From: Candidatus Iainarchaeum sp.
Lineage (GTDB): Archaea; Iainarchaeota; Iainarchaeia; Iainarchaeales; VGJJ01
Length of the DNA stretch: 64,000 nt
Direction: 5' to 3'
Assembly: GCA_016699555.1 (NCBI GenBank)
Contig: CP064981.1
Span: forward strand, 155,456-219,455
The position numbers and the translations under genes were made by a program. This document shows, in pieces, positions 3,049-43,488 of the stretch (position 1 is the first letter of the stretch; every line of letters begins with the position of its first letter). Below the pieces are notes generated by a model. The model was not told the DNA's origin and searched no databases. It saw only the letters and a program-made list of their open reading frames with translations.

Positions 3049-3114
3049 CACCTCAAAAACAATTGAATAATCGCTACGCAAAACGAGAATAAAAAAATGA
3101 ATGGAAAAATAGAA

Positions 3115-3188
3115 CGAGGCCGGAGGGATTTGAACCCTCGACAGTCTGCTTAAGAGGCAGATACTCTACCAGGCTGAGCTACGGCCCC
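3115..3188 (-). tRNA. tRNA-Lys (anticodon CUU)
   Basis: Reverse complement GGGGCCGTAGCTCAGCCTGGTAGAGTATCTGCCTCTTAAGCAGA...GGTTCAAATCCCTCCGGCCTCG folds as a cloverleaf. Anticodon loop is CTCTTAA. Confidence 0.85.
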
Positions 3189-3297
3189 ATTTTTGAGTAG
3201 TGGGACTACTGCGAACGTGCATTCGCAACTTCTTTTTCGAAATTGGGTGTCGCGCAAGCGATACCCATTCTCGCAGCGGCCAGCCGAAACTGGCCAA

Positions 3298-3371
3298 CGA
3301 GGCTAGTGGGATTTGAACCCACGGCACACGGATTAAAAGTCCGCTGCTCTACCAGGCTGAGCTATAGCCCC
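3298..3371 (-). tRNA. tRNA-Lys (anticodon UUU)
   Basis: Reverse complement GGGGCTATAGCTCAGCCTGGTAGAGCAGCGGACTTTTAATCCGT...GGTTCAAATCCCACTAGCC; anticodon loop is CTTTTAA. Confidence 0.85.
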
Positions 3372-3498
3372 AATCACTACGAAAAAGGCGAAGAAACGGT
3401 TAAAAAAGACCCTATTCCGGCCCAATATAGCGCGGGTGCCGCCTTTCGCGCACCCATCCCAAGAGCAGCGTTTTATTCACCAAAACAATCCCTTCCCC

Positions 3499-4733
3499 AT
3501 GGAGAAAAAATGGATTTTCTGGGGATTATGCGCTCTCCTGCTCACATTACCCCTCATCCAAGCAGCCACCTTCGCCACCACCCTCTTCGTGTGGAATGCC
3601 CCTGCCGGGACGCGAAGCTATACCCTCACCTACGGCGCCGCCTGCAATGCCAGCGCATTCTATTTCAATGAAGTCGACGCCAACTACGACCCCGACAACG
3701 ACGGAAACGCCGCACGCATCCCCCCACCGCCACGCTCGTGAGCGACAGCAACGTACTTGGAGACAGCTACAACTATGGAGGGATAAGCTCCCCTAGCGCC
3801 GGCCCGGTATACGCCTACCAACAGACCGGACTCAATAGCGACCCCTCCGACCTGAGCGAAGTCGCGACCGAATTCACATCCGATGAATACCTCAACATCG
3901 AAAACGTCGACGCAACCTATGTCGACGTCATCGAAACGGGTAGCGGCAGTTACATCGCCACCCAATACCGCATCGACTACGACCAAGACTATCGCCGCAT
4001 CAAGAAGACCACCGTCAACTATACCGGAGGCACCTTCATCAAAGTCAACGCGAACCCATGCATCAACGACACCACCGGAAACGAAGTCGATATGCGCGCT
4101 TACGCATGGAACTGGAGAACCAATGTGTTCGATCTCATCCAAACCGATAACGATAACCAAGGAGGCGGAATCAGCAGCGCCATCTTCACCCAACGCAGCA
4201 TCTCGCTCGACACCAACATCCGCGACTACGTCAATTCCGACGCAACCACCTATTTCATGCTCGCAGCAGGCCCCGTCAACACACTCGATGGATGCATGAC
4301 ACTCGACGAGCTCGATTTCGACGTCGAATATTACCCCGACACCAACGCATTCTGCCAAAGCGCAACCATCGCACCCATCACCATCACCAATGCAGGGGGA
4401 TCCAACCTCAACATCGACGGGAACTTCTCCACCGCATTCTCAGGAAACGACACCAACCTCGTACTGAAAGTATGGCAAGGAACAGGAAGCGGATGCGGAA
4501 CAGCAGGAATGGGAGGATGGGAAAAAAGACTGCAGCGTCACAAACGCACTCACCGACCTCGGAATGACCACGTGCAGACAATACAACCAAACAAACGCCA
4601 CCAGCAATGGAAGGCTCATCAGCGCGCTCTTGCCGGGAGACTCCAACCAGCTATGCTTCTCCGGCGACATCAACACCTTCACGCGCCGCGGAACCTACGT
4701 CAAGACATTCCAGATCGGCGACTACAACAGCTG
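3499..4733 (+). pseudogene. Secreted DxDxDG-motif surface protein paralog P1, interrupted by two frameshifts (about 3716-3741 and 4522-4527)
   Basis: Three ORF-track pieces (3436-3741, 3738-4769 and the tail to 4733) align colinearly with paralog P2. The shift points coincide with a C6 run (3720-3725) and an A6 run (4522-4527; P2 has A5 at the same place). Confidence 0.6.
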
Positions 4734-4774
4734 AGGCCGCGCAGTATTTTATTGCAGGATAAGCTCTGAATGGC

Positions 4775-6025
4775 ATGCACCCCTATACGCGCACCATACT
4801 CGGAATGGCGCTCCTTGCTCTGCTGATGATTCCCTTCGCCCACGCGCTGACAGGACTCTACAGCCAGACCATGACATGGAACATCCTGGCCAACCGCAGC
4901 CACAGCATCACCTACGGCGGAAGCTGCTCCGAGACCAGTTTCTATTTCAATGAAATCGACGCCAACTACGACCCCGACAACGACGGAAACGCCGCACGCA
5001 TTGCCCCAAGCTCCATCGCACGAACGCTTGGAACCACCACTGCGCAACGCGATTACAACTTTGTTGGAGTTACCGCTCCGAGCTCGACCAATATAGGGTA
5101 TCTTGGAGAGGTTGGAGTTTCCCCACCCACCACTATCGTGCCAGTAAGCACAGAATTCACGGACGATGAATACACCAATGCCATCGCAGCCGATTCAGCC
5201 GGCGTACAAACCATATCAACGGGAGGACAATACCCCTCCTTCAAAATCACATACAAGTCCGTCGTCTTGCCCGAAAAGACAACCGCTTTATCATTTCATT
5301 TCGTTGGAGTGAACATCCATAACGCTATTTGCGACGTCGAACCAACCGCGCCAGAGAGTGAAGGAATAGAGGGCGACATTAATTTCTTCCTATGGAACTT
5401 TCAAGAAAGCGAATATGAACGCATTGGACGCCACACCGGGACAGGAGTAGAAGGGACATACCCTGTCGAAAATGTTGATCAAACATACTTCGTGGATTTC
5501 AATCTCACACGATTCATCCATGCAACGGACCGCAACATTACGCTACTCATCCAAGGATCGTCGGACGCCAGTGTATTCTCATGCCTATACGGGGACATCA
5601 TCGAAATGTACCAACAATACTACTACGACAACAACGTCTTCTGCCAAAGCGCAACCATCGCGCCATTCACCATCTACAATAACGGAAACACCGACATCAA
5701 TGTCGACGGGAACTTCTCCAGCGCATTCTCAGGAAACGACACCAACCTCGTACTGAAAGTATGGCAAGGAACAGGAAGCGGATGCGGAACAGCAGGAATG
5801 GGAGGATGGGAAAAAGACTGCAGCGTCACAAACCCACAAACAGACCTAGGAACAAGCACATGCAGACAATACAACCAATCCAACGCCACCACCGCCGGAC
5901 GCCTCGTCAGCAATCTCGGAACAGGAGACTCCAACCAGCTATGCATGTCGGGAGACATCAACACCTACGTTGCAGGCGGCACCCACGCCAAAGAATTCGT
6001 CACCAATGACCGCAACGCAACATAG
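4775..6025 (+). CDS. Secreted DxDxDG-motif (putative Ca-binding) surface protein, paralog P2
   Basis: Signal peptide MHPYTRTILGMALLALLMIPFAHA. Conserved N-module TMTW..SITYGGSCS..FYFNEIDANYDPDNDGNAARI and C-module CQSATIAP..NVDGNFSSAFSGNDTNLVLKVWQGTGSGCGTAGMGGWEKDCSVT. The central region is variable. Confidence 0.7.
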   Translation: MHPYTRTILGMALLALLMIPFAHALTGLYSQTMTWNILANRSHSITYGGSCSETSFYFNEIDANYDPDNDGNAARIAPSSIARTLGTTTAQRDYNFVGVTAPSSTNIGYLGEVGVSPPTTIVPVSTEFTDDEYTNAIAADSAGVQTISTGGQYPSFKITYKSVVLPEKTTALSFHFVGVNIHNAICDVEPTAPESEGIEGDINFFLWNFQESEYERIGRHTGTGVEGTYPVENVDQTYFVDFNLTRFIHATDRNITLLIQGSSDASVFSCLYGDIIEMYQQYYYDNNVFCQSATIAPFTIYNNGNTDINVDGNFSSAFSGNDTNLVLKVWQGTGSGCGTAGMGGWEKDCSVTNPQTDLGTSTCRQYNQSNATTAGRLVSNLGTGDSNQLCMSGDINTYVAGGTHAKEFVTNDRNAT

Positions 6026-6057
6026 CGGGTTTTATTCCACTATGCGCTTCCACCCCT

Positions 6058-7311
6058 ATGCGACCGAATAATCTTGTTGTGGCGACACTATTCCTATTGC
6101 TCTGCGCCCCCCTCATCGCACACGCCGTCGAAAGCACCACCACCATGACGTGGATCATCATGCTCAATCGCGCGCACAGCATCACCTACGGCGGAAGCTG
6201 CTCGGACACCAACTTCCACTTCAAAGAAACGGACGCCAACTACGACCCGGACATCGATGGAAACGGAGCAAAAATCAAACCCAGCGCCAATCCAGGAACG
6301 AATCCACCCGCTTCAAGCACGTGGGATGAACAATTCGTCTCCTACTCCACGCCGTGCTCCAGCACAGGAAACAATTGTGCCTTCGATGTCAACCTCCAAA
6401 CATCACTCCCAACCTCAGCAGCAACTCATAATGCGGAGTTCGTGAGCACACAATACGACAACCTCGATCCGGTAGACGGCGCGGATGCCAACACCATTGC
6501 GAGCGTATCGGGAAGATTTCCCGCGCAAAAATTCGTATTCAAACTCGCAGGGAATGTCCACCCCCAACGCATTATTGACTTCAACTTCAGCTACCAAGGA
6601 TCGGCCATCGCAATGTCGAATGCAATCACCTGCGCCGATGGAGCGGGAACGGATCGGGACATGAATTTCTATATCTACAATTACACCAACTCCCAGTATG
6701 ACCTCGTCCTACAACGCACGGGGACAGGAGCAGCATATAGTGGAAACGCCCCTCGGGACGCCAATGCATACATGAGCATCAATCACTACACCCTCAGCGA
6801 TTACGTTGGAGTCGCACCCGACAACAACATCACATTCCTCGTACGAGGGGTCGATAACACTAGCACTGGCCGCTTCTCATGCGTCATCACGGACCGCATC
6901 GCACTGGCCTATCACACATACACCGAATCCACCTACTGTCAATCCTCCACCGTAGCACCCATGCGCATACGCAACGTCGGAAATACAGCCATCAACATTG
7001 ATGGAAACTTTAGCAGCGCATTCAGCGGAGTGGACACGAATATCGTATTGAAAGTATGGAGGGGAACCCCATTCTGCGGCAATACGGGATTCGGAGGGTG
7101 GGAAAAAGACTGCAGCGTCACGAGCACCACGATAGCGCCCGGCACCACTACCTGCAAGCAATTCAACCGATTCAACGCCACCACGTCCAGCAGACTTATA
7201 TCCAGCATTGCAGTAGATGGGAACGGCAGCCTCTGCTTCTCCGGAGACCTCAACGGGTTCGTTGGAGCAGGCAACCACGTCAAGACATTTCAAACCGGAA
7301 GCGGAGTATAG
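6058..7311 (+). CDS. Secreted DxDxDG-motif surface protein, paralog P3
   Basis: Signal peptide MRPNNLVVATLFLLLCAPLIAHA. Same N- and C-terminal modules as P2 around a different central insert. Confidence 0.7.
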   Translation: MRPNNLVVATLFLLLCAPLIAHAVESTTTMTWIIMLNRAHSITYGGSCSDTNFHFKETDANYDPDIDGNGAKIKPSANPGTNPPASSTWDEQFVSYSTPCSSTGNNCAFDVNLQTSLPTSAATHNAEFVSTQYDNLDPVDGADANTIASVSGRFPAQKFVFKLAGNVHPQRIIDFNFSYQGSAIAMSNAITCADGAGTDRDMNFYIYNYTNSQYDLVLQRTGTGAAYSGNAPRDANAYMSINHYTLSDYVGVAPDNNITFLVRGVDNTSTGRFSCVITDRIALAYHTYTESTYCQSSTVAPMRIRNVGNTAINIDGNFSSAFSGVDTNIVLKVWRGTPFCGNTGFGGWEKDCSVTSTTIAPGTTTCKQFNRFNATTSSRLISSIAVDGNGSLCFSGDLNGFVGAGNHVKTFQTGSGV

Positions 7312-7314
7312 GAT

Positions 7315-8169
7315 ATGCAATATACCACCATTCTAGCAACAACACTCCTCCTCGTCATTTTGGCAGGATGCACCAGCCCGGCGAATAACCCTGCAACTCC
7401 AACACCCGATACCAACCACGGATTGGTACCCACCCCTACGCTGCCACTCCGCGAGCACGCCATATTCCAGCAATACGCAACCACCAACGGAAAGACCATC
7501 CAAGAAACCCAAACGTTCTTCCACAACAATTACGGCATCGCCGAGAATGATATATTCGCACAACTCCCTTCCGTCCCAGCCACATTCCTCCAGGACGTCA
7601 ATACGCTGCACTATGGCAATGGACTTGGAACGAACCTCATCCCACGCGAAAGCTACCTCCAACCGGAGTTTTTCCCCACATTCAGCACAACAGGCATCCA
7701 GACATGGGCCAAAGCCCCTGATCAGTTCCCAAACACCGTCGGATTATCATCCACCCCCGCCGAACAGCAAGCCACGCTCGCCAGCGATAGCAATGGGTTC
7801 ACAACCACCCTTTTCATCGGAAGCGCGTGGGGAGTGACCTACTACCAAGGCATGGCTTTCCGTTATACCATCCAACCGGCAGCCGACATCCACCTCTCAT
7901 TCGATCCACCCCACATCCTCGCAGGACCCACATTCCCCGTATTCACCCCAGAATGGATGCATAAGATCACCGTCGACGGAACCATCGGAACCGATGTAGA
8001 GGAAGGAACCTACACCATCACCATCTACCCCGCCGATGCCCCCATCGAAGTCCAAGAGCAATGGTACGACGCACACCCACGCTATGTGAGCGGAAACGGA
8101 CTCATCGGGCCCAGCGATGGACTCGCCACATTCACTCTCACCATCCCGGCGCGCAACACCACCAACTAA
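7315..8169 (+). CDS. Lipoprotein (LAGC lipobox), hypothetical; C-terminal domain shared with the 40079-41184 gene
   Basis: MQYTTILATTLLLVILAGC is a signal peptide with a lipobox. The C-terminal ~110 aa is homologous to the C-terminus of the 40513-41184 frame. Confidence 0.6.
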   Translation: MQYTTILATTLLLVILAGCTSPANNPATPTPDTNHGLVPTPTLPLREHAIFQQYATTNGKTIQETQTFFHNNYGIAENDIFAQLPSVPATFLQDVNTLHYGNGLGTNLIPRESYLQPEFFPTFSTTGIQTWAKAPDQFPNTVGLSSTPAEQQATLASDSNGFTTTLFIGSAWGVTYYQGMAFRYTIQPAADIHLSFDPPHILAGPTFPVFTPEWMHKITVDGTIGTDVEEGTYTITIYPADAPIEVQEQWYDAHPRYVSGNGLIGPSDGLATFTLTIPARNTTN

Positions 8170-9317: not shown

Positions 9318-9440
9318 CGCACATTCTTGGACAGGCACACAGTTAAAAGGAAATTGGAGCTGAAGAGTAGAACGGCAAGAATGACCGAATAAACACAAAA
9401 TATTCGTTCATTTTTTCACGTTAACTTCTAATCCAATCCT

Positions 9441-9515
9441 AGCGGGACGGGGCAGTCTGGAGTGCCCGTCGGGCTCATAACCCGAAGATCGAAGGTTCAA
9501 ATCCTTCTCCCGCTA
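9441..9515 (+). tRNA. tRNA-Met (CAU), initiator type (A1:U72, three G:C pairs in the anticodon stem)
   Basis: AGCGGGACGGGGCAGTCTGGAGTGCCCGTCGGGCTCATAACCCGAAGATCGAAGGTTCAAATCCTTCTCCCGCTA folds as a cloverleaf. Anticodon loop is CTCATAA. Confidence 0.85.
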
Positions 9516-9756
9516 TCTCTCTTTTTCAATACTTTTTGTAATCCCAAACAAAAACCCTTCAAAATACTCACTCACTTTATCATATACAGTGACTTTTTGT
9601 GCAGTTTTGATCATTTTTTCACCCTCATTCTTGGTTTTTTAGATCAAATTTCAGTAATTATTAACAGTTTATTATTTTATTCACTTTATTTGATATGTTG
9701 CATATTTTGAACCAATACTCAACTCAATTTTTAACGACTAAATATTAACAACCCGA

Positions 9757-25399: not shown

Positions 25400-25918
25400 A
25401 TGGCGCCCACTCCCTCTTCGGTCCGCGAATCCAAGCGTGGTCAAGCGGCGATCCCGGATGTGATGTTTGCAGTGACGCTGTTCATGATCATCCTGGCCGG
25501 AATCTTTTATTTTCAGGGATCGATCGAGCGTGCGACGGAGCTGCAGTTCGAGCGGAAGACATTGGATACGACGACCGCGAATGTGGCGGAGTATCTCGTG
25601 AAGAATCCCGGCACGCCATCGGACTGGGAATTGCTGTCGGACTATAACGCGGTACAGTTCTTCGGGCTAGCACTACGCGATCGCGTGTTGGATCCGGATA
25701 AGCTCGTCGCCTTTGTGAATCTCGGAAACACGAACTATGATTTCCTGCGCGAAAAGCTGCGGCTCAGCCATTTTAACTACTACATCGAATTCACTGGGGG
25801 AGCGAATGTCGCGACGGGATTGGCCCCCATCGGGTCGGTGCAATCCAGCGTGGTACGGCGCTTCGTGACCGTGAATGGGATCGAGACCACAGTGACGGTG
25901 ACCATCTATGCCACATGA
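25400..25918 (+). CDS. Pilin-like protein (class III signal peptide)
   Basis: MAPTPSSVRESKRGQAAIPDVMFAVTLFMIILAGIFYF. Confidence 0.6.
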   Translation: MAPTPSSVRESKRGQAAIPDVMFAVTLFMIILAGIFYFQGSIERATELQFERKTLDTTTANVAEYLVKNPGTPSDWELLSDYNAVQFFGLALRDRVLDPDKLVAFVNLGNTNYDFLREKLRLSHFNYYIEFTGGANVATGLAPIGSVQSSVVRRFVTVNGIETTVTVTIYAT

Positions 25919-28900
25919 TTACTATTCCATTCCCTCGCAGAGGGGTTTTGCTTTCAGCGCAGACGTGGTGCTGGCCCTCATCCTGGTTTCAGCGGTAGCG
26001 CTGCTCGTCTCGTTGCCCAACCAACCCACTTCTTTCTTGGAGGAACGACGCGTGGCGGATCAGTATGTGGACGATATCTTTTTGGCCATGGACCATTCGG
26101 GTTTTGTCTCGAATGAGATCGATACCAATGGCTTTTCTTCGGCGACGCTGCAGAACATCTACTCCTACATCCGCACGCTCTTGCCGCCGCAGTACGATCT
26201 TTATGTGGAGCTGACGAGTTATCCCGTTGATGTCAACTCCTGCCAGTCGGCGCAAGATTTTTCTTCTTGCTTTCCCGATGCCAATCGCACGGCTCTCCAG
26301 CATGGAACGGCGCTTCCCAATTCGGCTCCATTCGTGCATGGGCGAAGGGTCTTCTTCAAGCAACAGCCTGCATCCCAATGCACGGGCGGATTGGCGCCGC
26401 ACGCGGGAGGGATCTATGCGCCTTATTCTCCGCCGCTTGCCTTGGCAGAGGATGCGAACATCAATTTCGATGTGAATATTTTTCCGGCAGGTCCATTGAC
26501 GTGCGACCAGAACATTACGGTTTCATTGACGGTAACCACCTCTTCGGGGACGCGCCGCCCGGTGGACATGATGTTGGTGTTCGACCGTTCAGGGAGCATG
26601 AGCTGGGGCGGTCAAGTGAGCACGACAGCAGCTATCGGCATCGAGGTGGACCAGAACTATGCATTTGTGGCGGATTCCACTGCGGGGTTGCGCGATTTGA
26701 ATGTGAGCAGTCCGGGGCTGCCATTGATCATGGGCACCTACAACTCTCCGGGGACCGCGAACGACGTGGACGTGAATGGAAATTATGCCTATCTCGCAGA
26801 TGGGAGTTCGGGATTGCGCATCGTGAATGTGACCAACAAAGCCTCTCCTTCTTCCACGAGTCAACTGGATGTAGGGGGAACGGCATATGGTGTGGCAAGC
26901 AGGGATGGCGTGACATATGTTTCGACGTACGATAACTCCAGCATCGACGTGGAAACGACGACGAACAATAGTCCGAATCAGAACCTCTATATCGGGAGGA
27001 GCTCTTCCCAAGCGAGTGCAGCGCAATCATTCGCGCCCGGAGTGGATTTCATTTCGGGCTTTAGCGTGCGCCTGCGCAAGGTGGGGAGTCCGCCCGACAT
27101 CACGGCGCATTTGCGCACGAGCATTTCGGGGAGCGATTTGAATAGTGTCACGATTGCCGCTTCCTCGGTAGGAACCTCTTCGAGCGGCGCCTATGTGGAC
27201 GTGAATTTCGCGGGGATGGTCCCACTCACGAGCGGAAGCACGTACTTCATCGTCCTCACGACCGCGTCCAACAGTTCATCGAACTACTACGAATGGAAAG
27301 CCCGCGGGAGCAGCCCATACTCTGGGGGACAGGCCTATCAGAATACGACTTCGCAGTCGTGGGACGCGTATTTGCGCACGTATTTCGTTCCGGGCCTCGT
27401 CGTTGTCGATACGAGCAACAAGGCTTCTCCGCGCGTGATCGGCGCTTCGGCGTTGGAGGATGCCTATCACATCGCGCTGAGCGGGGATTATGCCTATGCC
27501 GCGAATGGGACGAATGGATTCCGCATTTTCGATATCTCCGCTGCTCAGCCTAGCGTGGTAGGGAATTGCTCTACTGCTGCGGGGTGCAACATTTCGAGCG
27601 GCACGACGTATGATGTGTGGCCGAGCGGCAACTATGCGTATGTCGCGAATGGATCTCAAGGGTTGCGCGTCGTGAACATCTCCAATCCCGCATCGCCGAG
27701 TCTCGTTGCCACCTACAATACGCCCGGCACAGCCTACACGGTGCGCTTGAAGGATACGAATGCCATCGTTGCGGATGATAGCTCGTTGCAGGTAATAGAC
27801 GTGACAACGCCTGCTTCTCCGGCATTGGCGACGAGCTATGCAACCCCTTACAGTTATCGCGATCTTGAAGTCCAAGGGGAATGGGCTTACATCGCCGTCG
27901 ATTCTGGAATTCCGGGGGTCATCACGATCGACCTGCGCGTGGGTCCCAAGCTCAATCAAGCGAAGACTTCTGCGACCACGTTCGTGGACTTCAATGGATG
28001 GAATAGCTCCAGCGACCAGATGGGGCTCGTGAGCTTCTCGAGCAGCGCCACGCTGGATCAGGCGCTCACGAAGACGTATTCGCTCGTTGACACCGCAGTG
28101 AACAATCTGGTCTCGAATGGGGGCACGGCCGCAGGGGATGGCATCAATACTGCAACGACCCACTTTGGCACGGCACAGACGGATGTGAGCAATACGGGGA
28201 GCCAGAACCAGGTGTTGTACATCGGACAAAATTCCACGAACGAATCGGCGGTGCAGGCCTATCAGCCCGTGCTCCCCTATCTTTCGCGTGCGGACTTGTA
28301 CATCCGTCGCGTGGGAAATCCTTCCTCTCCTTTGGTCGTTGAATTGCGTTCGAGCATTTCGGGGAGCGCGATCGTGAGCGCGACGATTCCCGCTTCTTCG
28401 GTCGGAACGTCGTATGCGCTAGTCCAGGCGAACTTCAACACGACTTCCGTCACTCCGGGCACGACGTATTATTTGGTTGCGACCACTGCCACGAATAATG
28501 CCTCGAACTACTACCAGTGGGGCGCGAGCTCGAGCAATCCTTATTCGGGGGGACAAGCCTATCAGAATACGACTTTGCAGTCGACATGGGATGCGCGCTT
28601 CGCCACGTATGGGGGCTATACCAATCCCTCTGCGCTGAAGTTCCAAATCCTGCTGGGGGATGGCCAGACGAACTCGGGGGCCAATTCTTCGACGGCCGCC
28701 ATCACGGCAAGCAACAGTGGTATCATCATCTATACCATTGGTTTCGGAGAGGATGCGGATGCGAGTGAGTTGTCGAACATCGCGAGCCTGACGGGGGGCC
28801 AATACTATTATGCGGCGGACCAGAACGCGCTGAGCGCGGTCTATCAGCTGATCGCGCAAACCATTCAAGTGATTGCGCAGGATGCCAACATCTACACCAC

Positions 28901-29537
28901 TTTCGGAAACGGGACTGTTATCGTGGATGATGGGAATGGCACGGCAATAGGCAATGGCCTCATCTTTGATATCAATACGCTGGCGCCCCAGCCATGGGTC
29001 TCCAGTTACACGTTCAACATCCCTTGCACGACTACGCTGGCGTGCAGCTCGTCGCTTCTTTCCGTCCCCGGCAGTACGACGCAGTTCCAGTACCTGGATT
29101 CGAATGGCGTGCCGCAGGTCAAGGACTGGAATGAATTCATCACGACGCCATTCAATTACCGCGATTTGAACGTGGATATCCAGGCGGGAAATCTCATCAG
29201 CACCAACAATGTCGATCTCACGGTGCGCGTCATCAGCAATGGGACGCTGGACACGAATGGGACGAGCGTGAATTTCTATCGGGGAAATCCTTCTCCTTCG
29301 ACGCTAGTGGGTTCGCAGTCCATCCCCTTCCTGTGCGGCTCGCAATCTCCAGGGTGCTTGGCTTCGAGCTATTCGTTCACGCAAAACATCCCCGCGGAAG
29401 GGGATTTGTTCGCAGTGGTGAATCCTAGCGGTACGATTCCGGAATGCAGCTACAACAACCAGGACTTCATCTACTGCTACACCCGCCCCCAGACGCAGTT
29501 CTTCACACTGGACTACTGGGCATGGATCCGAGGGTGA
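25908..29537 (+). CDS. Giant pilin-like adhesin (1209 aa): class III signal peptide, VWA domain, LVIVD beta-propeller repeats, and a duplicated ~135-aa module
   Basis: N-terminus [28 protein letters not shown] MIDAS motif [15 protein letters not shown]. VWA continuation [13 protein letters not shown]...[12 protein letters not shown] and [31 protein letters not shown]. LVIVD-type repeats such as [24 protein letters not shown] and [24 protein letters not shown]. Internal repeat A at 26985-27390 and repeat B at 28216-28615. Confidence 0.7.
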   Translation: [1209 protein letters not shown]

Positions 29538-32504: not shown

Positions 32505-32582
32505 TGCTCTAATAGGCTAACCACGGTGCGATTCATTTTCCGTTGGGGTAGCACTTATAACCTCCAATTCCTTTTTTCGGCT

Positions 32583-34073
32583 ATGCTTCATGGCAATATC
32601 GAGTCCTATTCGATCAAGTCCGACATTGATGTGGGGGTCGACATCACCTATGACGAAGCCGGTTTCGTGAAACGCTACATGCTCCGCGTTCCGGAGTTCG
32701 GGCCAGGAACGAGGGCGATGCTCAACAATCTGAAGAGCAAGGTGATTTCGGACGTCAACGTGTCGGGAGACAAACTGCTCGATGTCAAGTTCGTGGAAGA
32801 AATGAAAGGACACTTCCGCACCAAGGCACGGGCGCTCATGGAAGTGCAGCTGCCCGAGATTCCATTGGAACAACGCGACAAGCTGATTGCAGTCATTATC
32901 CACGAAATGGTGGGGTTAGGCTACATCGAGTTCATGCTCGATGACGGGAATCTCGAAGAAATCGTGGTGAACAGCGCCGAGGAACCGGTGTGGGTGTACC
33001 ACAAAAAGTATGGCTGGCTCAAGAGCAACATCTTCATCTCTCCCGAGGCGGAGATCCAGAATTATGCGAGTATTATCGCGCGCCGCGTGGGGAAGCAGGT
33101 CACGATCCTGAATCCCTTGCTGGATGCGCACTTGGTCACGGGCGATCGTGCCAATGCGTCGTTGCATCCCATTTCCTCGCGCGGAAACACGATTACGATC
33201 CGTCGTTTTCGCCGCGATCCATGGACGGTTACGGATTTCATCAATGGGGGGACGGGAAGCGCCGAGCTGATGTCGTTGATATGGTTGGCGATGGAGTATG
33301 AATTGAACATCATGGTTTCCGGTGGTACTGGAAGCGGAAAGACGACGTTGCTGAATGTCATGATGCCCTTCATCCAACCCAACCAGCGTGTGCTGACCAT
33401 CGAAGATACGCGCGAACTGCAGCTTCCCGAATTCCTGCACTGGGTGCCCATGACGACGCGCGAGCCCAATGCGGAGGGCAAGGGACAGATTTCCATGCTG
33501 GACCTGCTCGTCAATGCCTTGCGTATGCGCCCGGACCGCATCATCGTGGGTGAAGTCAGAAGACAGAAGGAAGCCGAAGTGATGTTCGAAGCCATGCACA
33601 CCGGGCATGCGGTTTACGCTACGGTGCACGCAAACACGGCGGAAGAGACCATCCAACGCTTGACGTCTCCGCCTATCGAAATCGCGCCTTCATTGTTGGA
33701 AGCGGTCCACTTGAACGCGGTCATGTTCCGCAATCGTCGGTTGGGCGTGAGAAGGATCCTCCAACTGGCCGAATTCGTCCCCATGAAGTCCGGGGCACAA
33801 GGAGGCACGACGCTGAAACCCAATATCCTTTTCCGCTGGCGCGCGCAGACGGATACGATCGAGAAATACGCGGAAAGCATCCGCCTGTTCGATGAATTGG
33901 CGCTGCACACGGGTTATACGGCCCAAGAGATCAATCAGAATCTCAGCGAGAAACAGCGCGTGCTCGAATACATGATGCGCGAGAAGATCCGCGACATCAA
34001 TGAGGTGGGGATGGCGATCGCGCAATACTATTCCGATCCCGAAGTCATATTCAAGAAAGCGGGGATCCGTTGA
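32583..34073 (+). CDS. Type IV pilus/archaellum assembly ATPase (FlaI/TadA/CpaF family, secretion NTPase)
   Basis: Walker A VSGGTGSGKTTLLN, Asp box, Walker B RPDRIIVGEVR, His box EAMHTGHAVYATVHAN. The track start is GTG; the first ATG is at 32583. Confidence 0.9.
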   Translation: MLHGNIESYSIKSDIDVGVDITYDEAGFVKRYMLRVPEFGPGTRAMLNNLKSKVISDVNVSGDKLLDVKFVEEMKGHFRTKARALMEVQLPEIPLEQRDKLIAVIIHEMVGLGYIEFMLDDGNLEEIVVNSAEEPVWVYHKKYGWLKSNIFISPEAEIQNYASIIARRVGKQVTILNPLLDAHLVTGDRANASLHPISSRGNTITIRRFRRDPWTVTDFINGGTGSAELMSLIWLAMEYELNIMVSGGTGSGKTTLLNVMMPFIQPNQRVLTIEDTRELQLPEFLHWVPMTTREPNAEGKGQISMLDLLVNALRMRPDRIIVGEVRRQKEAEVMFEAMHTGHAVYATVHANTAEETIQRLTSPPIEIAPSLLEAVHLNAVMFRNRRLGVRRILQLAEFVPMKSGAQGGTTLKPNILFRWRAQTDTIEKYAESIRLFDELALHTGYTAQEINQNLSEKQRVLEYMMREKIRDINEVGMAIAQYYSDPEVIFKKAGIR

Positions 34074-34085
34074 GGCGGTGGAAAG

Positions 34086-34979
34086 ATGATCTATCGCTTC
34101 TCCATGCCATTGAACGTATTGCCCATGCCCATGCTGCGCTGGGCCAGCAAGCGACTCATCGGATTGGGCACGCAGTTCGGGAAGATATTCCCTGTATCGG
34201 ACGCCGACATGCGGCGCGCGAGTATCCCTGTCTCGTCCAAAGAGTATGCGACGATGTCTCTTGTGATTATCGCATTCTACTTCGTCTTTTTCTTCCTCGT
34301 CTTCTATACGATCAGCTACCGCGTCTTCGGGACGCTCAATCCTGTCCTCCCCGTCGTCGTGAGCGCGGTGTTCGGGATCCTGGTGATGGTGCAATTGGTC
34401 GCGTATCCCGTCATCCAGATCAAGAAGAAGGTCCGCGACCTCGACCGCAATCTGGTTTTTGCGCTGCGCACGCTCCTCGTGCAACTGCGTTCGGGCGTAA
34501 GCTTGTTCGATTCGATGAAAGTGGTGGCGGAAGGGAATTACGGCGCTGTTTCGACGGAGTTCCACAAGGCGGTGGAGCAGATCAACACGGGGACGATCCA
34601 AGAGGCGGCGTTAGAACGCATCGCGGAGAACAATCCGAGCATCTATTTCCGCCGTACTATCTGGCAAGTCGTCAACGGCATGCGCGCGGGCGCGGATATC
34701 ACGCAAGTGCTCGCGGAGAGCGTGGATTCATTGACGGATGCGCAGTCCATCCAGATCCGCAACTATGAAAGCCAGATGAAGATCCTCTCGCTCGTGTACA
34801 TGATGTTAGGCGTTATCGTGCCAGCGTTAGGGATCACGTTCTTGATCGTGCTGTCTTCGTTCCCCCAAATCACGATTACGGATGTGTATTTCTGGGTGCT
34901 GCTGACGTTCGTGGGAATCGGGCAGTTCATGTACATGGGTATCGTCAAGAGCAAACGCCCATCGCTGTTGGGAGACTGA
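34086..34979 (+). CDS. Pilus assembly membrane protein with a T2SS-F domain (TadB-like, FlaJ N-half-like)
   Basis: T2SSF-type stretch NLVFALRTLLVQLRSGVSLFDSMKVV...AVEQINTG flanked by TM helices. Confidence 0.8.
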   Translation: MIYRFSMPLNVLPMPMLRWASKRLIGLGTQFGKIFPVSDADMRRASIPVSSKEYATMSLVIIAFYFVFFFLVFYTISYRVFGTLNPVLPVVVSAVFGILVMVQLVAYPVIQIKKKVRDLDRNLVFALRTLLVQLRSGVSLFDSMKVVAEGNYGAVSTEFHKAVEQINTGTIQEAALERIAENNPSIYFRRTIWQVVNGMRAGADITQVLAESVDSLTDAQSIQIRNYESQMKILSLVYMMLGVIVPALGITFLIVLSSFPQITITDVYFWVLLTFVGIGQFMYMGIVKSKRPSLLGD

Positions 34980-36001
34980 TGCGCATGCCTTCTTTCCGGG
35001 TCGAACTGCCATTCTTGCGTGGGATCTATGCGGCATTCGAGAAGCAATTCATGTATTTGGGCCTGAAGATCTCGGCGCGCAAGTATGTGATGAACACGCT
35101 CATCTTCAGCTTCGTGCTGGGAGTGATTGCGGTCTTTTTGGGCCTGACCACGTTCAACTTGGGGATTATCTTCAGCATCATCGCGGGAATCAGTACGATA
35201 GTGGGGATGATCGGGGCGATGTACATGCTCCTGGACCTTTCCGCCGATGGTCGTGGGAAAAAAGTGGAGTCGATCCTGCCGGATGCGTTGCAGCTCATCG
35301 CAAGCAACATCAAATCGGGCTTGACGACCGAGCGTGCACTGTTGATGAGCGCGCGCCCGGAGTTCGGGCCGTTGGAAACGGAACTGCGACGCGTTTCCGC
35401 GAAGATCTATTCGGGTTCGCCGGTGGAGCATGCGATCCTCGAGATCCCTAAACACATCAAGTCCACACTCCTCGAGCGCACGACGTGGTTGTTGGCGCGC
35501 GGTATCTCTTCCGGCGGAGAAATCGCGGATCTCCTCATGCAGCTCTCGCACAACCTGCGAAAGCAATTGGCGTTGCAATCGGAAGCGAGCGCGTCCATCT
35601 CCATCTATGTCATCCTCATCTTCTTCTCTGCCGCGTTCGGGGGGCCTGCGCTCTATGCGGTTTCTTCTTTCATCGTAGAGGTGATGACGGCGCAGACGGG
35701 TTCCACTCCTGCCATCGATCCGGGAACGATCGCTTCGGCAGGGAGCCGTTTTGCGGGATTGAGTGGCTTTGTCAGCGGAAAGGCCAGCATCATTTCGCCG
35801 GACTTCATCGTGTTTTTCTCGCAAGTCATGTTATTCGTGGGAGGGGTATTCGCTTCGCTCATCCTTGGAGCGATCGCCACCGGAAAGGAAAAGGACGGGA
35901 TGAAGTATTTGCCCGTGATGCTATTGGTCTCTTTCGGCTTGTTCTTCCTGATCCGCGCCGTCATGCATGCGGCATTCGGTCCACTGCTGTTGAATCAGTA
36001 G
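34979..36001 (+). CDS. Pilus assembly membrane protein with a T2SS-F domain (TadC-like, FlaJ C-half-like)
   Basis: LPDALQLIASNIKSGLTTERALLMSA...ELRRVSAKIYSG plus several TM helices. ATGA overlap with the TadB-like gene. Confidence 0.8.
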   Translation: MRMPSFRVELPFLRGIYAAFEKQFMYLGLKISARKYVMNTLIFSFVLGVIAVFLGLTTFNLGIIFSIIAGISTIVGMIGAMYMLLDLSADGRGKKVESILPDALQLIASNIKSGLTTERALLMSARPEFGPLETELRRVSAKIYSGSPVEHAILEIPKHIKSTLLERTTWLLARGISSGGEIADLLMQLSHNLRKQLALQSEASASISIYVILIFFSAAFGGPALYAVSSFIVEVMTAQTGSTPAIDPGTIASAGSRFAGLSGFVSGKASIISPDFIVFFSQVMLFVGGVFASLILGAIATGKEKDGMKYLPVMLLVSFGLFFLIRAVMHAAFGPLLLNQ

Positions 36002-36034
36002 CACTGGCAAAAATGATCGATCGCATTCACCGCA

Positions 36035-36733
36035 TTATTCGGTGAACAGCTCTTCTTTGGGCAAGATTTCCATGCCGTCTTGGGTAATGCGGACGGGCCG
36101 CAATTTATCCGAAATCTTCGTCTCGCGCATCTTAAGGATCCCGACGCTGCGCTGGAAGCGATTCTCGATACGCGTGTGATAGAGCAAGATGACGCCATCC
36201 GCGACATATTCTTCCAATCCGAACAAACCGGTTTGCTGCGTGGAATTTTCATTGGTGATGATCGTCGTGACGCCCAGCTTCTTGAGCATCTTTCCCAGCG
36301 ATAGGATTCTTTTTCTGGCGTCGAGTTCTTTTTCGAAGTACAAGTGAAAAATGACACCGGGGTCGATGACCATGCGCTTGGCTTTGCTTTTTGTCACTAA
36401 GTCTTCGATGCTATCGCGTAATTTGTCGAAGTCATACAATTCGATGGTCTGCATGATTATTTTTCCGGATTTGACGAGCGGAGAATAATCCCATCCGAAA
36501 ACAGCTGCTGTTTGAATGAGTTCTTCGGGCTTTTCTTCGAGTGAAAGATAGACTCCCACTTCATTGTGCTGCATGGCGCCCGAATAAAGGTATTGCAGGC
36601 AGAAGATGGTCTTTCCCGCGCCGGGGTCTCCCGTTAATGCGACGAGTGCGCCTTTGGGGACGCCGCCCTCAATCAATTCGTCCAGCCCTCTTACTCCCGT
36701 GGGAGTGCGTTCGATGGTCGTAATGGGCGGCAT
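36035..36733 (-). CDS. KaiC/RecA-superfamily ATPase, FlaH-like
   Basis: GVRGLDELIEGGVPKGALVALTGDPGAGKTIFCLQYL (Walker A) on a single KaiC-like domain of about 230 aa. An alternative ATG is at 36751. Confidence 0.7.
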   Translation of the reverse strand: MPPITTIERTPTGVRGLDELIEGGVPKGALVALTGDPGAGKTIFCLQYLYSGAMQHNEVGVYLSLEEKPEELIQTAAVFGWDYSPLVKSGKIIMQTIELYDFDKLRDSIEDLVTKSKAKRMVIDPGVIFHLYFEKELDARKRILSLGKMLKKLGVTTIITNENSTQQTGLFGLEEYVADGVILLYHTRIENRFQRSVGILKMRETKISDKLRPVRITQDGMEILPKEELFTE

Positions 36734-36872
36734 TCGCTTTCCATAGAACATTTGCAGGTTTATAACAGTTTTAGTGGCATTATTCGGTTTCCGAGAAGAT
36801 TAACCTTTAAAATGCCCAAATCCTTCGCGTTCCTTAGCATTAACCTTTCTAAGAAAGGAGGAGCGAATGCGT

Positions 36873-37331
36873 ATGAAATTTGGTGTTCGAGGCCAATCGG
36901 CGCTGGAATACTTGATGACTTATGGCTGGGCCTTGGTCGTTATTGTTATTGCAGTTGCAGCATTGGTGATTCTAATCAATCCAAGCAATATTCAGGGAGA
37001 CACTTGTGACTCCAAACTGGGTCCTTTCGTTATTACCCAGTCAAATATCTCAGCTGACAGCGCCCAACTGGTTTTGGTCAACCAGACCGGACAAGGCGTT
37101 AGCGCTATGGACTTCAATGTTACCGGAACCCACGGTGGAGCCAATGCTTACACCTCTGGAGCCGTTACCGAGTCCCCTACCTCTATGACAGCTGGAGAAA
37201 CGGCAACGTTTACGGTCGATCCCGCGAACGATTTGAATGCTGGAACCTATAACTTGACGTACTCTTTGACATACAGCGCAGGAAATTTGACCGGTTTGAC
37301 CGCTACCGCACAGTGCCGCGGAACGATCTAA
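36873..37331 (+). CDS. Archaeal type IV pilin, candidate major pilin
   Basis: MKFGVRGQSALEYLMTYGWALVVIVIAVAALVIL is a textbook class III signal peptide. Strong RBS AAAGGAGGAG is about 9 nt upstream of 36873. Small (about 150 aa) with a Thr/Ser/Gly-rich beta domain. Confidence 0.8.
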   Translation: MKFGVRGQSALEYLMTYGWALVVIVIAVAALVILINPSNIQGDTCDSKLGPFVITQSNISADSAQLVLVNQTGQGVSAMDFNVTGTHGGANAYTSGAVTESPTSMTAGETATFTVDPANDLNAGTYNLTYSLTYSAGNLTGLTATAQCRGTI

Positions 37332-40078: not shown

Positions 40079-41184
40079 ATGATGACTTCCGAATCCGACG
40101 TTTCTACATCGCACCACACATCGACCGAGCACGCGCATTCAGCGCCCGCTGCGCATCATACTTCGCCTCCAAAACGCACGATGCCTCTCCCCCTCATCGC
40201 GGCGGGAGTGTTGATCCTCTTGATTGCTGGTGCATGGTATTTCTCGAGCGCTGCTGCTCCTGTTCCAGCTCCTGTTACGGGTACGGACACTCCTTCCCCG
40301 ACGCTTGCCCCCTCTGTGGAGGATCGCACCTCCACCGAAACGCTTACCTTTACCCAACGCGTGGAACGCAATGAATCCCTCAAGCGCACACTCACCAAAG
40401 CCAAGTACACGCGCGAAATCTATAGCATCGATCGCCGCGGCTACGACCTCTTCGAGTCCGCCGCCAATTTCACCGACAGCTCATTAGACGAGATCAAGGA
40501 GTTCTACCTCAATTGCTGCGATTTGACTTCCGAGGAAGACATCTTCGCCGATCTGCCTCCCATTCCAAGCGACTTCGCAGCCGTTGCATACGATATCGCG
40601 ACCGGTTCCTTGCTCCAACTGGGGCAAATCACGAAGGGCTATTACTTGCAACCCGAGTTCTATTTCCATGTAGGCGAAACGGCCGGGGCCAATCGCCGAA
40701 TCGCTTTCCGTGCATGGTCGCAGCCCGAATTGCAATACTGGGGGACAATGGCCACCTCTCCTATCCCAACACCCAATGGGGATCGCTCGTGAAAAGCAAA
40801 GAGAATGTCGCGCGCGCGGTCGTATTCTACGCGGCGGGCTGGAACATCCAGAATTATCAAGGCCTCATGCTCGTCCCTACTGCGGACTCCAAGAAATATT
40901 TTGACATCGAAATCCAAGCCGATTCGACTGCACAGCCCTACTTCCTGCTCGGGCCCACATTCCCTCGCTTCGACAAGCAATGGGCGGAAAAAGTCGTCAT
41001 CACGGTGCGTGCAAAACCCGACACGCCACCGGGCGAATACACTGTTGGACTCAACCCCGCAACGCCTCCAAAAGAAATCAATGAGAAATGGTCATCCGAC
41101 CACAAGGGATTGTACTTCGGCGGCCGCGGAGCGATTTCACCTGAAGGAAATCAGATTGACCTCGTCATCAACGTCCAAGAATAA
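40079..41184 (+). pseudogene. Membrane-anchored paralog of the 7315 lipoprotein, interrupted by a frameshift near a G-run at about 40737-40765
   Basis: The frame from 40079 (MMTSESD..TM helix..YLQPEF..WSQPELQY) ends at 40792. The frame from 40513 continues with PNTQWGSL...ILLGPTFPRFDKQW...EYTVGL, homologous to the C-terminal domain of 7315-8169. Confidence 0.55.
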
Positions 41185-41243
41185 TCGTTCTGTTGCCGGG
41201 GCGCTCAAAAAGACTATTAAGGCGCATTTCCCGTTTTGAGCGC

Positions 41244-43202
41244 ATGCGACTCGCATTGGGCATAGGGGTCATTTTCCTTTTCTTCATGTGCCTTGCCCCC
41301 GGCATCACCGCGAATGCGCCGACCAGCAATATCACCTGGCGCCCCGCTCTTGACACGGCATATTTTCTGGATTTGAGTTATGCGATTTGCCCTACTTCCA
41401 CGGGAAATTCCACTATCCAAGCGACCGTCGCGGGAGAAAGCGGTGCATCGGTCGTGGATGCGAACGTTTTCGCGACCATCCGAAAACCCGATCTCTCTAC
41501 GACGGATGTGAATTTCACCAACAATCTCTCGGGGACCTACTCCTATACATACGACTTCGACCAGAATGGAACGTATCTCATCCAGGCGCACGCATACAAA
41601 CCCGGCATCACGCCCGGGGATGCCAACGCCTATGTGTATCTCGGCAATTTGGATTTCGATATCATTTTCCTCAACAACAATTTCTCGATCGCTGTTGGCG
41701 CGCTCGGGACGATCCAGAATATCGTGTACAATTCCGATGGCAATATCGTGTATGACATCAACGCCAACACCTCAATCCTGCTGAATGGAACGGTCGTGGA
41801 TGCCAATCGTGCGATGGCACAGGCGGCGAATGGGGAATTCTCCTACAATTTCTTCGGTCCCTCTCCCGCTGGCACGTACACGGTCACTACCGTCACCCAG
41901 TGCGGGAACCGTTATGATTCCAACACCTCGGGGGGATTCACCACTACCTCGGCTTCGACCGGGGGCACAGGCGGAACGGGATCAACGGGCGGGGGCTCGA
42001 CTGGAGGCGGAGGAGGAGGCGGCGGGGGTGGCGGTGGCGGTAGCTCTCGGCGTGCACAGATCATCGACATCTCATTCGATCCTGCGCCTGCGCGCAACAT
42101 GTCATCACAATTGAGCACGACGCTCCTCAATCTCACTACCGGGATCAATGACTACGTGCTCGAATACCAGGTCACGCTTCCTTCAGGCGCCATTGTGGTG
42201 GGTGAACGTGCGGCGCTTGCAGTTGCACCTTATTTGCCCAGCACATTCGTGTTGGAGGATTCCTACATTCCGACGGAGCTGGGGGTAATCATCGTGGACG
42301 TTTGGGCTAAATCCCCCAACAAGCGGACGACTTATGCCACGCTCCGGCGCACGTTTGATGTCACGGGGACGCACCTCATCAATGTCGATGTGGCAACGCC
42401 TTCGACGAAGAGCGCGCAAGGGTTGTCATTCCCCTTCACGATCAACCTTGCCAATGAAGGGGATTTCGACGAGGCGAATGTCGAGGTGTCATGGCACATC
42501 ATGGATCCCAACGACACGCCCTACAGCCAGTCCACACTCACGACGACCATCAACAAAGGGGATTCGGTTTCCTTCCCCTACAGCGCGTTCATCCCACTCA
42601 ATGCGGTGTTGGGACTGCATGCCTTGGAGGTCGAGATTACCGCCTATGGCCAAACCCAGAAGCGCGAGGTGATGTTCGAGGTATCTTCGCCGAATGACTA
42701 TTATGCCCAAGTCATCGCTGACCTGGAATTGCGCGCCGATCAGCTCGAAGAAAAACTCAAGGACTTGCAACAGCGCGGATTCGATGTCTCGGATGAAACG
42801 AGTATGCTGCTGGACATCCAGACCGACTTAGCGCGTGCAAAAGGAACCTTTCTCGCAGGAAAATTCGAGAACCTGAACACGCAACTGCTGAAAATCTCCG
42901 AGGATCTGACAAAACTGGCTTCGATGATCGACCTCATCGGGCAACAAGCGCCCCTGCTCTCGAGAGACGGTCTGATCATCATCGGTTATGCCGCGGGAGT
43001 GTTGCTGCTGATTGCGTTGGCCTACCTCTTATGGAAGAAGCTCCGCGAACACGCCGTGCCCAAGAGCCCACTGCTGACGCCCTATCCCCGCTTGCCATGG
43101 TTCATGCGCTTCATGCGATTGGAGAAATGCTATATCCCCATACGTGAACGCAAAAAACAAAAAAGAAAGGCTTTAATATCCCGACTTCTTGGGTTGGAGT
43201 AG
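41244..43202 (+). CDS. Large surface protein with signal peptide, CARDB-like beta domains, a poly-Gly/Thr linker and a C-terminal TM anchor
   Basis: MRLALGIGVIFLFFMCLAPGITANA. STGGTGGTGSTGGGSTGGGGGGGGGGGGGS. C-terminal LIIIGYAAGVLLLIALAYLLWKKLRE. The track start is TTG; the ATG is at 41244. Confidence 0.6.
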   Translation: MRLALGIGVIFLFFMCLAPGITANAPTSNITWRPALDTAYFLDLSYAICPTSTGNSTIQATVAGESGASVVDANVFATIRKPDLSTTDVNFTNNLSGTYSYTYDFDQNGTYLIQAHAYKPGITPGDANAYVYLGNLDFDIIFLNNNFSIAVGALGTIQNIVYNSDGNIVYDINANTSILLNGTVVDANRAMAQAANGEFSYNFFGPSPAGTYTVTTVTQCGNRYDSNTSGGFTTTSASTGGTGGTGSTGGGSTGGGGGGGGGGGGGSSRRAQIIDISFDPAPARNMSSQLSTTLLNLTTGINDYVLEYQVTLPSGAIVVGERAALAVAPYLPSTFVLEDSYIPTELGVIIVDVWAKSPNKRTTYATLRRTFDVTGTHLINVDVATPSTKSAQGLSFPFTINLANEGDFDEANVEVSWHIMDPNDTPYSQSTLTTTINKGDSVSFPYSAFIPLNAVLGLHALEVEITAYGQTQKREVMFEVSSPNDYYAQVIADLELRADQLEEKLKDLQQRGFDVSDETSMLLDIQTDLARAKGTFLAGKFENLNTQLLKISEDLTKLASMIDLIGQQAPLLSRDGLIIIGYAAGVLLLIALAYLLWKKLREHAVPKSPLLTPYPRLPWFMRFMRLEKCYIPIRERKKQKRKALISRLLGLE

Positions 43203-43212
43203 TGGTGAGACT

Positions 43213-43488
43213 ATGGTGAGCTCCGAAATGATTGTTTCATTGGGATTATTTGTCGTCCAGCTGGCAGTGGCTGTCTATCTGATCCGCTACTCCAACCAGC
43301 AGCTGATGACCAGCGTCTCCGGATTGCGCGACAAGAATCTGGAATTGATGAAATTGAACGCACGCCTCACCAAAACCATGATATCGAACGAGAATGCCAT
43401 CCGCAAGGAACTGGATCAGTTGCGCGGAAGCGTCGGAAGCAAATCTTCCACCGAACAAGTCGTCGCCGTGCCTGCGAAGAAGGCATGA
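43213..43488 (+). CDS. Small single-pass membrane coiled-coil protein (tandem paralog 1)
   Basis: MVSSEMIVSLGLFVVQLAVAVYLIRYSNQQ + coiled coil. Paralogous to the next gene. Confidence 0.5.
   Translation: MVSSEMIVSLGLFVVQLAVAVYLIRYSNQQLMTSVSGLRDKNLELMKLNARLTKTMISNENAIRKELDQLRGSVGSKSSTEQVVAVPAKKA

Follow-up and report, generated by a model that had tools for sequence, protein, structure and literature searches.

The genome of Candidatus Iainarchaeum sp. (assembly GCA_016699555.1, contig CP064981.1) carries three adjacent genes, designated here P1, P2 and P3, and a short relative, P4, at a distance from them. An initial annotation of this locus reported that their products share conserved N- and C-terminal modules and that P1 and P2 have nearly identical DNA within these modules. 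This raises the question of how neighboring genes come to share such DNA, and of what kind of proteins they encode. We addressed it in a stretch of 64,000 nt of this contig (positions 155,456 to 219,455; hereafter the window, in whose numbering coordinates are given unless a related locus is named) and in the related loci L001 to L009. The contig is a circular 1.05-Mb Iainarchaeota (DPANN) genome obtained from activated sludge; in a supplementary table of Singleton et al. 2021, it is the metagenome-assembled genome (MAG) Fred_18-Q3-R57-64_BAT3C.431, one circular contig of 1,048,949 bp, assigned to Iainarchaeota. Our preferred reading, which we hold with moderate confidence, is that a triplicated secreted family, built from a scaffold and an inserted core, is encoded here together with a partner, that patches of P1 and P2 have been exchanged by gene conversion, that the proteins may have a binding role at the cell surface, and that the frameshifts seen in P1 are errors.

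Pairwise nucleotide comparison confirmed that the near-identical DNA of P1 and P2 is real and consists of one block in the N-module and one in the C-module. The N-module tract occupies 3658-3719 in P1 and 4940-5001 in P2 (plus strand, as are all family genes), which is 62 nt with one mismatch, including an exact run of 46 nt (3674-3719 and 4956-5001), and it covers the DxDxDG loop. The C-module tract spans 132 nt in P1 (4414-4545) and matches 5703-5833 in P2 except for one mismatch and one indel. It contains an exact run of 94 nt (4433-4526 and 5722-5815), followed by the 1-nt indel and a further 23 nt of exact identity, and the perfect tract amounts to 112 nt once the extra A is removed. P3 resembles the other copies at the protein level only, as had been noted; its longest exact run is 29 nt and is shared with P2 (4901-4929 and 6175-6203), and P4 has no exact run of 14 nt or more with any copy.

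To place these tracts in an evolutionary frame, we compared the window with two other species. Locus L001 (GCA_964480125.1) has the order MacB, CARDB, ABC, PspC, HSP20, three intact family genes, the partner, Trm56 and TFE, with Xer further on. The synonymous divergence (dS) between the window and L001 is at least 1 in seven of nine neighboring genes and 0.38-0.64 in the other two, and the two genomes therefore belong to different species. The third species is represented by three strain-level contigs (L004, L005 and L006), in which the tandem genes encode 415, 414 and 408 aa. A codon-aligned sliding-window comparison showed that the same C-module stretch is 98-100% identical between P1 and P2 in the window and between their counterparts P1' and P2' in L001 (98 of 99 nt in each genome), whereas orthologs from the two genomes match at 85-87 of the 99 nt and range between 83 and 87% identity. 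The perfect tract of L001 measures 153 nt and lies at the same position, with a sequence different from that of the window. Among degenerate codons of the block that specify the same amino acid, none of 29 differs between P1 and P2, in comparison with 17 of 30 between the P3 orthologs. The longest run of matching polymorphic sites was 88 for the L001 P1-P2 pair and 57 for the window pair, but at most 19 in the 34 other pairs. In the third species (L005), P1'' and P2'' are only 70-82% identical in the block, and no such tract is present. The N-module tract, in which P1-P2 identity is 0.95 in the window versus 0.78 in both L001 and L005, is specific to the window lineage. The proposal of gene conversion, by which the terminal modules of P1 and P2 are homogenized in part, is thus strongly supported by identity that is higher within than between genomes, by the lack of synonymous differences and by replication in L001, and the conversion arose independently in two species.

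The sequence on either side of the tract tells us how the exchange may have occurred. The cores and C-terminal tails flanking the tract stay P1-type or P2-type on both sides, and so the tracts are non-crossover patches and not chimeric assemblies. The P2 genes of the window and of L001 carry a P1-type "DLG(M/T)(T/S)TC" segment, whereas the unconverted P2 of L005 has the "TAPTATTC" form found in P3 and P4. The difference suggests that P1 was the donor and P2 the recipient, and that older events, by now partly decayed, are present as well. Short non-crossover patches, mostly in this direction, repeatedly re-homogenize parts of the DNA that encodes the scaffold. The N-modules of P2 and P3 have a proportion of synonymous differences (pS) of 0.38 in the window versus 0.72 in L001, and this resemblance may be an older P2-P3 conversion in the window lineage.

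Other origins of the identical tracts were also considered. A constraint at the nucleotide level, such as an embedded element, was ruled out, since an identity of only 70-82% in the third species means that the region is not intrinsically invariant as DNA; an Rfam scan returned only three tRNAs, with no RNA element that could explain the conserved block. Recent duplication was ruled out as well, because the triplication predates the split of the three species, which are saturated at synonymous sites. It is very unlikely that the blocks arose in assembly or polishing, through cross-mapping of short reads between paralogs or through a collapsed repeat. In Singleton et al. 2021, Nanopore reads were assembled with CANU and polished with Racon, Medaka and then Illumina-based Racon, and for this MAG the source table lists values of ~9.5 and ~18.9 that we read as coverage. 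This history speaks for an artifact, and so do at least three homopolymer frameshifts in the 64 kb, one of them inside an identical tract and another at a tract edge. However, L001, a different species from a different assembly, has a tract of its own there whose sequence is not that of the window; the tracts keep the reading frame, lie between gene-specific sequences on both flanks and show no crossover; the older, partly decayed transfers are visible too; and cross-mapping would not yield 112 nt of perfect identity if the true copies had differed by about 15-25%, as those of L005 do.

Patch gene conversion and concerted evolution are known among tandem paralogs of surface proteins, for example in the archaellin/flagellin and pilin families. 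The P1/P2 tract shares several features with these cases, as it is identical within a genome and different between orthologs, its synonymous sites are homogenized, its flanks remain gene-specific, and the structural or assembly parts are homogenized while the exposed parts diverge. It differs from them in that the tracts are very short (46-153 nt), only P1 and P2 are involved apart from the possible older P2-P3 event in the N-module, the family is uncharacterized, and the host is a DPANN archaeon. The P1/P2 conversion is real, yet it is an ordinary mode of evolution for a surface-protein family.

We then asked how the proteins are built. Alignment placed P1, P2, P3 and P4 in one family with common N- and C-modules, and a six-frame scan with hidden Markov models (HMMs) found exactly four copies in the window, at the positions reported before and nowhere else. 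The long forms are P1 (3499-4734, stop codon at 4732-4734), which lies in three frame segments as assembled, P2 (4775-6025, 416 aa, IPJ89_00940) and P3 (6058-7311, 417 aa, IPJ89_00945), the latter two intact. P4 (39353-39988, ATG at 39353, 211 aa) is the short form, in which the N-module is joined straight to the C-module, and the alignment agreed with the earlier view that it has no core. The cores of the long forms had been described as unrelated, and this did not hold. They can be aligned, have the motifs EFT.DEY, D.N.Y.WN and C..D in common, and gave pairwise BLASTP E values of 5e-13, 9e-9 and 3e-20 at 21-26% identity, so that they are a single homologous inserted domain. In the alignments the core is an insertion relative to P4-type proteins, and a lectin-like Laminin_G_3 domain is a second insertion in some relatives. 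Since short, long and core-alone relatives exist and the insertions can be aligned, the long form is a scaffold domain with another domain inserted in a loop.

All members share a hydrophobic N-terminus ending in A-x-A, six invariant cysteines and four to eight N-x-S/T sequons, and a C-terminal anchor is absent. From these features we infer that the proteins are secreted, disulfide-bonded and possibly glycosylated, and the secreted or surface role proposed for them is plausible on the same grounds. The DxDxDG motif was also verified (D66 P67 D68 x D70 G71 N72), with at least 90% conservation in the close family. Rigden and Galperin reportedly defined a motif class of DxDxDG calcium-binding loops. 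The family motif D-P-D-x-D-G-N agrees with such loops in its conservation in long and close short forms and in lying on a loop that AlphaFold2 (AF2) modelled at a predicted local distance difference test (pLDDT) score below 50 in both P2 and P4; it departs from them in distant short-form relatives, where it degenerates to DG(N). We regard the loop as a putative Ca2+ site.

The conserved ends and divergent middles had led to the locus being described as cassette-like. In a programmed system of antigenic variation, one expressed gene would be diversified from silent donor cassettes, and the tandem paralogs, the conserved flanks around divergent middles and the presence of gene conversion would all fit such a system. 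We consider it extremely unlikely here. None of the copies is truncated, and each has a start codon and a signal peptide and is preceded by a TATA-like box of its own, 28 nt ahead of the ATG. The conversion tracts lie within the conserved N- and C-modules and leave out the variable core, so that conserved and not variable sequence is transferred. In addition, each of the three cores has its orthologs in all three species, and the cores thus represent stable, unshuffled lineages. Unlike in the pilE/pilS, vlsE and msp2 systems, promoterless truncated silent cassettes are lacking and variable segments are not transferred. The TATA-like boxes of P1 (3471-3477), P2 (4747-4753) and P3 (6030-6036) have the sequence TTTTATT on the plus strand, a heptamer that occurs only 10 times on that strand of the 64 kb, and a TATA-like sequence is found at the same position in the orthologs. 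Their positions make it probable that P1, P2 and P3 each form their own, nearly leaderless transcription unit.

In agreement with the initial annotation, no other part of the proteins evolves as fast as the core. Orthologs of the window and L001 are 35-56% identical in the core, 74-83% in the N-module and 73-87% in the C-module, and the corresponding values against L005 are 32-41%, 57-75% and 68-79%. The neighboring genes are 83-99% identical to their L001 counterparts at the protein level, with nonsynonymous divergence (dN) of 0.01-0.12 in eight of nine genes; the exception is HSP20 (72%, dN 0.21). The identity is 55% for P2, 65% for P3 and 63% for the first partner gene, with dN of 0.29-0.42. 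The family and its partner evolve about ten times faster than the flanking genes at the amino-acid level. Among the strain-level contigs of the third species, all eight single-nucleotide polymorphisms (SNPs) fall in the cores and five of them are non-synonymous, and six of the eight are clustered in P3 codons 111-148. A small import by recombination, or a local hot spot, may account for this cluster. Between L005 and L006, six of seven substitutions lie within 112 nt of the P3 core (L005 3401-3512), and four of these are non-synonymous. The dN/dS ratio was computed for each module, but dS is saturated (at least 1) in all informative inter-species pairs, and the ratio therefore cannot separate relaxed from diversifying selection. 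The description of the cores as hypervariable is overstated.

P1 had been taken as one gene (3499-4733). As assembled, however, two 1-nt frameshifts, which had been overlooked, break its open reading frame (ORF). Three-frame translation showed that frame 0 covers 3499 to ~3726 and then meets a stop at 3739-3741, that a second frame runs from ~3727 to 4527, and that the last 69 codons return to frame 0 (4528-4734). The first site (3720-3727, plus strand) is a 1-nt deletion directly after a C6 run (3720-3725), where the window has a lone A; the intact orthologs have ATC CCC CCA ACx at this point and thus one A more. The second site (4522-4527, plus strand) lies in the identical tract shared by P1 and P2 and is a 1-nt insertion; it gives an A6 run, in contrast to the A5 (GAA AAA GAC) of P2 and of the two P1 orthologs. 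With both bases repaired, P1 encodes 411 aa, is colinear over its whole length with P0005 and P0007, its intact orthologs of 411-415 aa, has no stop codons or other lesions, and keeps all invariant residues of the family. The NCBI annotation of P1 holds only the middle piece (IPJ89_00935, 343 aa).

A total of three frameshifts was found in the window, two in P1 and one in a second partner gene, all of them in or beside homopolymers and all with intact orthologs; a survey of the whole window by overlapping ORFs was too noisy for use. The homopolymer sites, the assembly history and the otherwise perfect reading frame of P1 favor sequencing error, and with fair confidence we conclude that the frameshifts of P1 are probably not signs of pseudogenization but homopolymer errors left uncorrected in a Nanopore assembly of low coverage. 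It is also possible that P1 is truly inactivated, or switched by slipped-strand changes at short homopolymers, which would make the array one decaying or phase-variable copy and two functional ones; we take this seriously but consider it unlikely. Two frameshifts in one 1.2-kb gene, as against none in about 11 comparable neighbors with intact comparators, exceed the number expected from a uniform error rate, and P1 could accordingly be a true pseudogene or be phase-variable. Both shifts occur at or beside mononucleotide runs, and contingency loci are typical of variable surface proteins. On the other hand, the runs are short (C6 and A5/6), the two shifts cancel each other (-1 then +1), no lesion exists beyond the two 1-nt indels, and an unrelated gene, the second partner gene, has a similar defect at a G5 run. 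An R9.4.1 Nanopore consensus at roughly 10x coverage is known to leave such homopolymer errors. The occurrence of two frameshifts in one gene, both at or inside P1/P2-identical tracts, leaves room for inactivation or phase variation, and also for a failure of polishing caused by multi-mapping reads. The case is a caution that homopolymer errors in long-read MAGs can mimic pseudogenes or hide genes from annotation.

Returning to the preferred reading, we searched for relatives that might indicate a function. A word-seeded search gave 25 homologs, all from Iainarchaeum- or Diapherotrites-type or unnamed archaeal MAGs, and the family appears restricted to Iainarchaeota/Diapherotrites-type archaea. 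An exhaustive profile search gave 262 matches of three kinds. About 30 are full-length relatives, some of which have N-terminal extensions or a Laminin_G_3 domain within, or after, the C-module. Many are P4-like proteins of 200-236 aa with the N-module joined directly to the C-module, and many others contain the core alone in large extracellular multidomain proteins together with PQQ propellers, Laminin_G_3, DUF3344 or DUF6701. A profile of the short form found 84 proteins, mostly of 200-240 aa (about 210), which are 60-83% identical to P4. The short form is thus the better conserved version and also the more widespread one.

P3 (P0011) and many of the long forms have precomputed matches to PF27237 (AF_1625_C), whereas P1, P2 and all short forms lack them; the matches were graded weak or faint in L001, and PF27237 was absent from the Pfam copy that we scanned (0 matches). 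As only long forms are matched, the matches may map to the inserted core. A literature search on AF_1625 found nothing. P2 was modelled by AF2 at pLDDT 76.9, and in the predicted structure the core has a beta-sandwich jelly-roll topology superposable on solved carbohydrate-binding modules (CBMs). The core is thus a predicted CBM/galactose-binding-like beta-sandwich of ~210 aa. Compared with CBM29, CBM32, CBM22, CBM15, F-type lectins, PNGase F domains and PF27237, it is similar to CBM-type modules in recurring in large extracellular multidomain proteins and differs from known CBMs in having only 7-13% sequence identity and in being nested inside another domain. PF27237 is itself a domain of unknown function, and P2 and P4 are without a match to it.

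Taken together, each protein consists of a predicted Sec-type signal peptide and a cysteine-rich scaffold, modelled as a jelly roll and made of the N- and C-modules, with P4 being the scaffold alone, the DxDxDG motif on one scaffold loop, and in the long forms a CBM-like core inserted between the scaffold halves. The proteins are probably extracellular, ligand- or glycan-binding surface proteins, and they are probably held at the cell surface by the membrane-anchored partner. Several results weigh against this assignment. Scans of P2, P3, P4 and the first partner gene against Pfam, NCBIfam and PHROGs gave no match, and a search of PDB sequences with the family profiles (hmmsearch) returned nothing relevant. 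The AF2 model of P4 is of low confidence (pLDDT 65), its Foldseek search against the PDB yielded no significant match (E at least 0.28), and CBM-like folds occur in non-lectin proteins as well. A lenient Pfam hmmscan of 16 short forms, with E up to 10, produced scattered single matches only (Big_9, PKD and similar).

The weak structural matches of P4 point to another role, which we judge improbable. P1 to P4 would be chaperone-free, donor-strand-complemented, Ca2+-stabilized subunits of extracellular filaments of the TasA or CanA (cannula-like) kind. The TTTxTW segment would serve as the donor strand, the DxDxDG loop would hold Ca2+ at the subunit interface, lectin-like inserts of the long forms would be exposed on the surface of the filament, and gene conversion would keep the polymerization interfaces of co-assembling paralogs compatible. 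The TasA fiber ranked second in the Foldseek search of the P4 model, and a conserved type-IV-pilus-like cluster is found three genes away from P4. The N-terminal motif with the highest conservation comes right after the signal peptide and has a pLDDT below 50 in both AF2 models, and this low-confidence segment is reminiscent of the donor strand of monomeric CanA, which is disordered (Sleutel et al. 2025, PMC12518558). Cannula assembly is Ca2+-dependent and CanX loci are without chaperones, which would agree with the putative Ca2+ loop and with the lack of a chaperone gene near the family genes.

When the family was set beside the members of the TasA superfamily described in that study, namely the CanA/CanX cannulae, Hyper2 (DUF1102), AbpA and TasA, the likeness extended to small size, predicted Sec secretion, a predicted jelly-roll fold, a conserved N-terminal strand-like segment and top, though weak, structural matches of P4 within the TasA group. 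The family differs in its six conserved scaffold cysteines and large domain insertions and in having no sequence or profile similarity, and filament formation is putative here. The Foldseek E values (at least 0.28) and the pLDDT of 65 for the P4 model speak against the filament role, and no HMM-level similarity was detected to PDB chains or to Pfam Peptidase_M73/DUF1102 at E up to 10. To our knowledge, six invariant cysteines are unusual for TasA-like subunits. In its most specific form, based on the weak fold matches and the unplaced conserved N-terminal segment, the scaffold would be a hitherto unrecognized, highly divergent DPANN branch of the donor-strand-exchanging, Ca2+-dependent TasA/cannula-type filament subunits, in which conversion preserves the inter-subunit interface and a host- or substrate-attachment fiber is conceivable; we hold this to be decidedly doubtful. 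If true, the filament could be such an attachment fiber of an episymbiotic archaeon, decorated by the long forms with nested lectin-like domains.

The gene order around the family bears on the preferred reading of a secreted family with a partner. The first partner gene (7315-8169, plus strand, 284 aa, IPJ89_00950), which had been overlooked, starts 3 nt past the P3 stop codon. It encodes a protein in which a hydrophobic N-terminal segment containing LAGC is joined through a Pro/Thr-rich linker to a globular domain, and its relatives are unannotated and as lineage-restricted as the family. A partner-family gene lies directly downstream of a family gene at every locus examined (L001-L007), sometimes overlapping its stop codon. 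A paralog of the first partner gene, partner gene 2 (40079-41184, plus strand), follows P4. It is frameshifted at the G5 run at 40740-40744, where a 1-nt change produces two overlapping frames, and the L008 ortholog (6473-7669) is intact, so that an assembly homopolymer error is probable here too. The pair of P4 and partner gene 2 is kept in L008 and L009. Three tandem copies with the partner are found in L001 and L004-L006, and a single copy with the partner occupies the HSP20...Trm56 slot in L002 and L003. The triplication that gave P1-P3 is therefore lineage-specific, as more distant relatives have a single copy in the same syntenic slot (HSP20 ... Trm56-TFE). In L002 (9071-9898, minus strand) and L003 (8919-9710, minus strand) an extra partner paralog of 263-275 aa (24% identity, E 4e-14) lies divergently upstream and adjoins a giant ORF of 1525-2338 aa without Pfam matches.

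Additional features were observed in the window. Two tRNA-Lys genes (CTT, 3114-3189; TTT, 3297-3372; minus strand) are head-to-head with P1, between P1 and HSP20, and a tRNA-Met gene (9440-9517, plus strand) comes after TFE. The type-IV-pilus/archaellum-like cluster at 32526-37331 encodes a T2SSE ATPase, two T2SSF proteins, a KaiC-like ATPase (minus strand) and a 154-aa pilin-like protein with a class-III-type signal (QSALEYLMTYGWALVVIVIA). This cluster is three genes upstream of P4 and has the same order in L008 (565-3803) and L009 (1-3831). The T2SSE ATPase of L009 (1-568, GCA_043803765.1) is annotated with Intein_splicing and LAGLIDADG_3, neither of which is seen in the window copy (515 aa). 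At 25908-29537 a 1209-aa protein with LVIVD repeats and VWA domains is encoded, abutted by same-strand ORFs of 329 and 376 aa (the 376-aa one with a weak PKD match), and these genes may form one larger surface-protein locus. The gene downstream of partner gene 2 (41193-43202) encodes a 669-aa protein that combines a YtkA/filamin-like Ig domain with a stretch of about 13 glycines and carries a transmembrane segment at its C-terminus; it is kept in L008 and L009 (651-667 aa). It is followed by tandem paralogous ORFs of ~91 and 84 aa (43213-43485 and 43516-43746) with 46-49% identity, which are kept in L008 (9695-10253).

In conclusion, the locus holds an uncharacterized family of a familiar kind, tandemly expanded, fast-evolving and apparently secreted, with structural modules that evolve in concert. 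As a natural case of gene conversion over short tracts in an uncultured archaeon, it is clean and replicated. It also defines an apparently secreted family, restricted as far as sequence comparison indicates to Iainarchaeota/Diapherotrites, that has an unusual nested-domain build and a conserved, membrane-anchored partner. DPANN archaea have tiny genomes and rely on contact with other cells or surfaces, and few of their surface proteins have been characterized. The members of this family are concrete candidates for factors of attachment or glycan recognition in these organisms.

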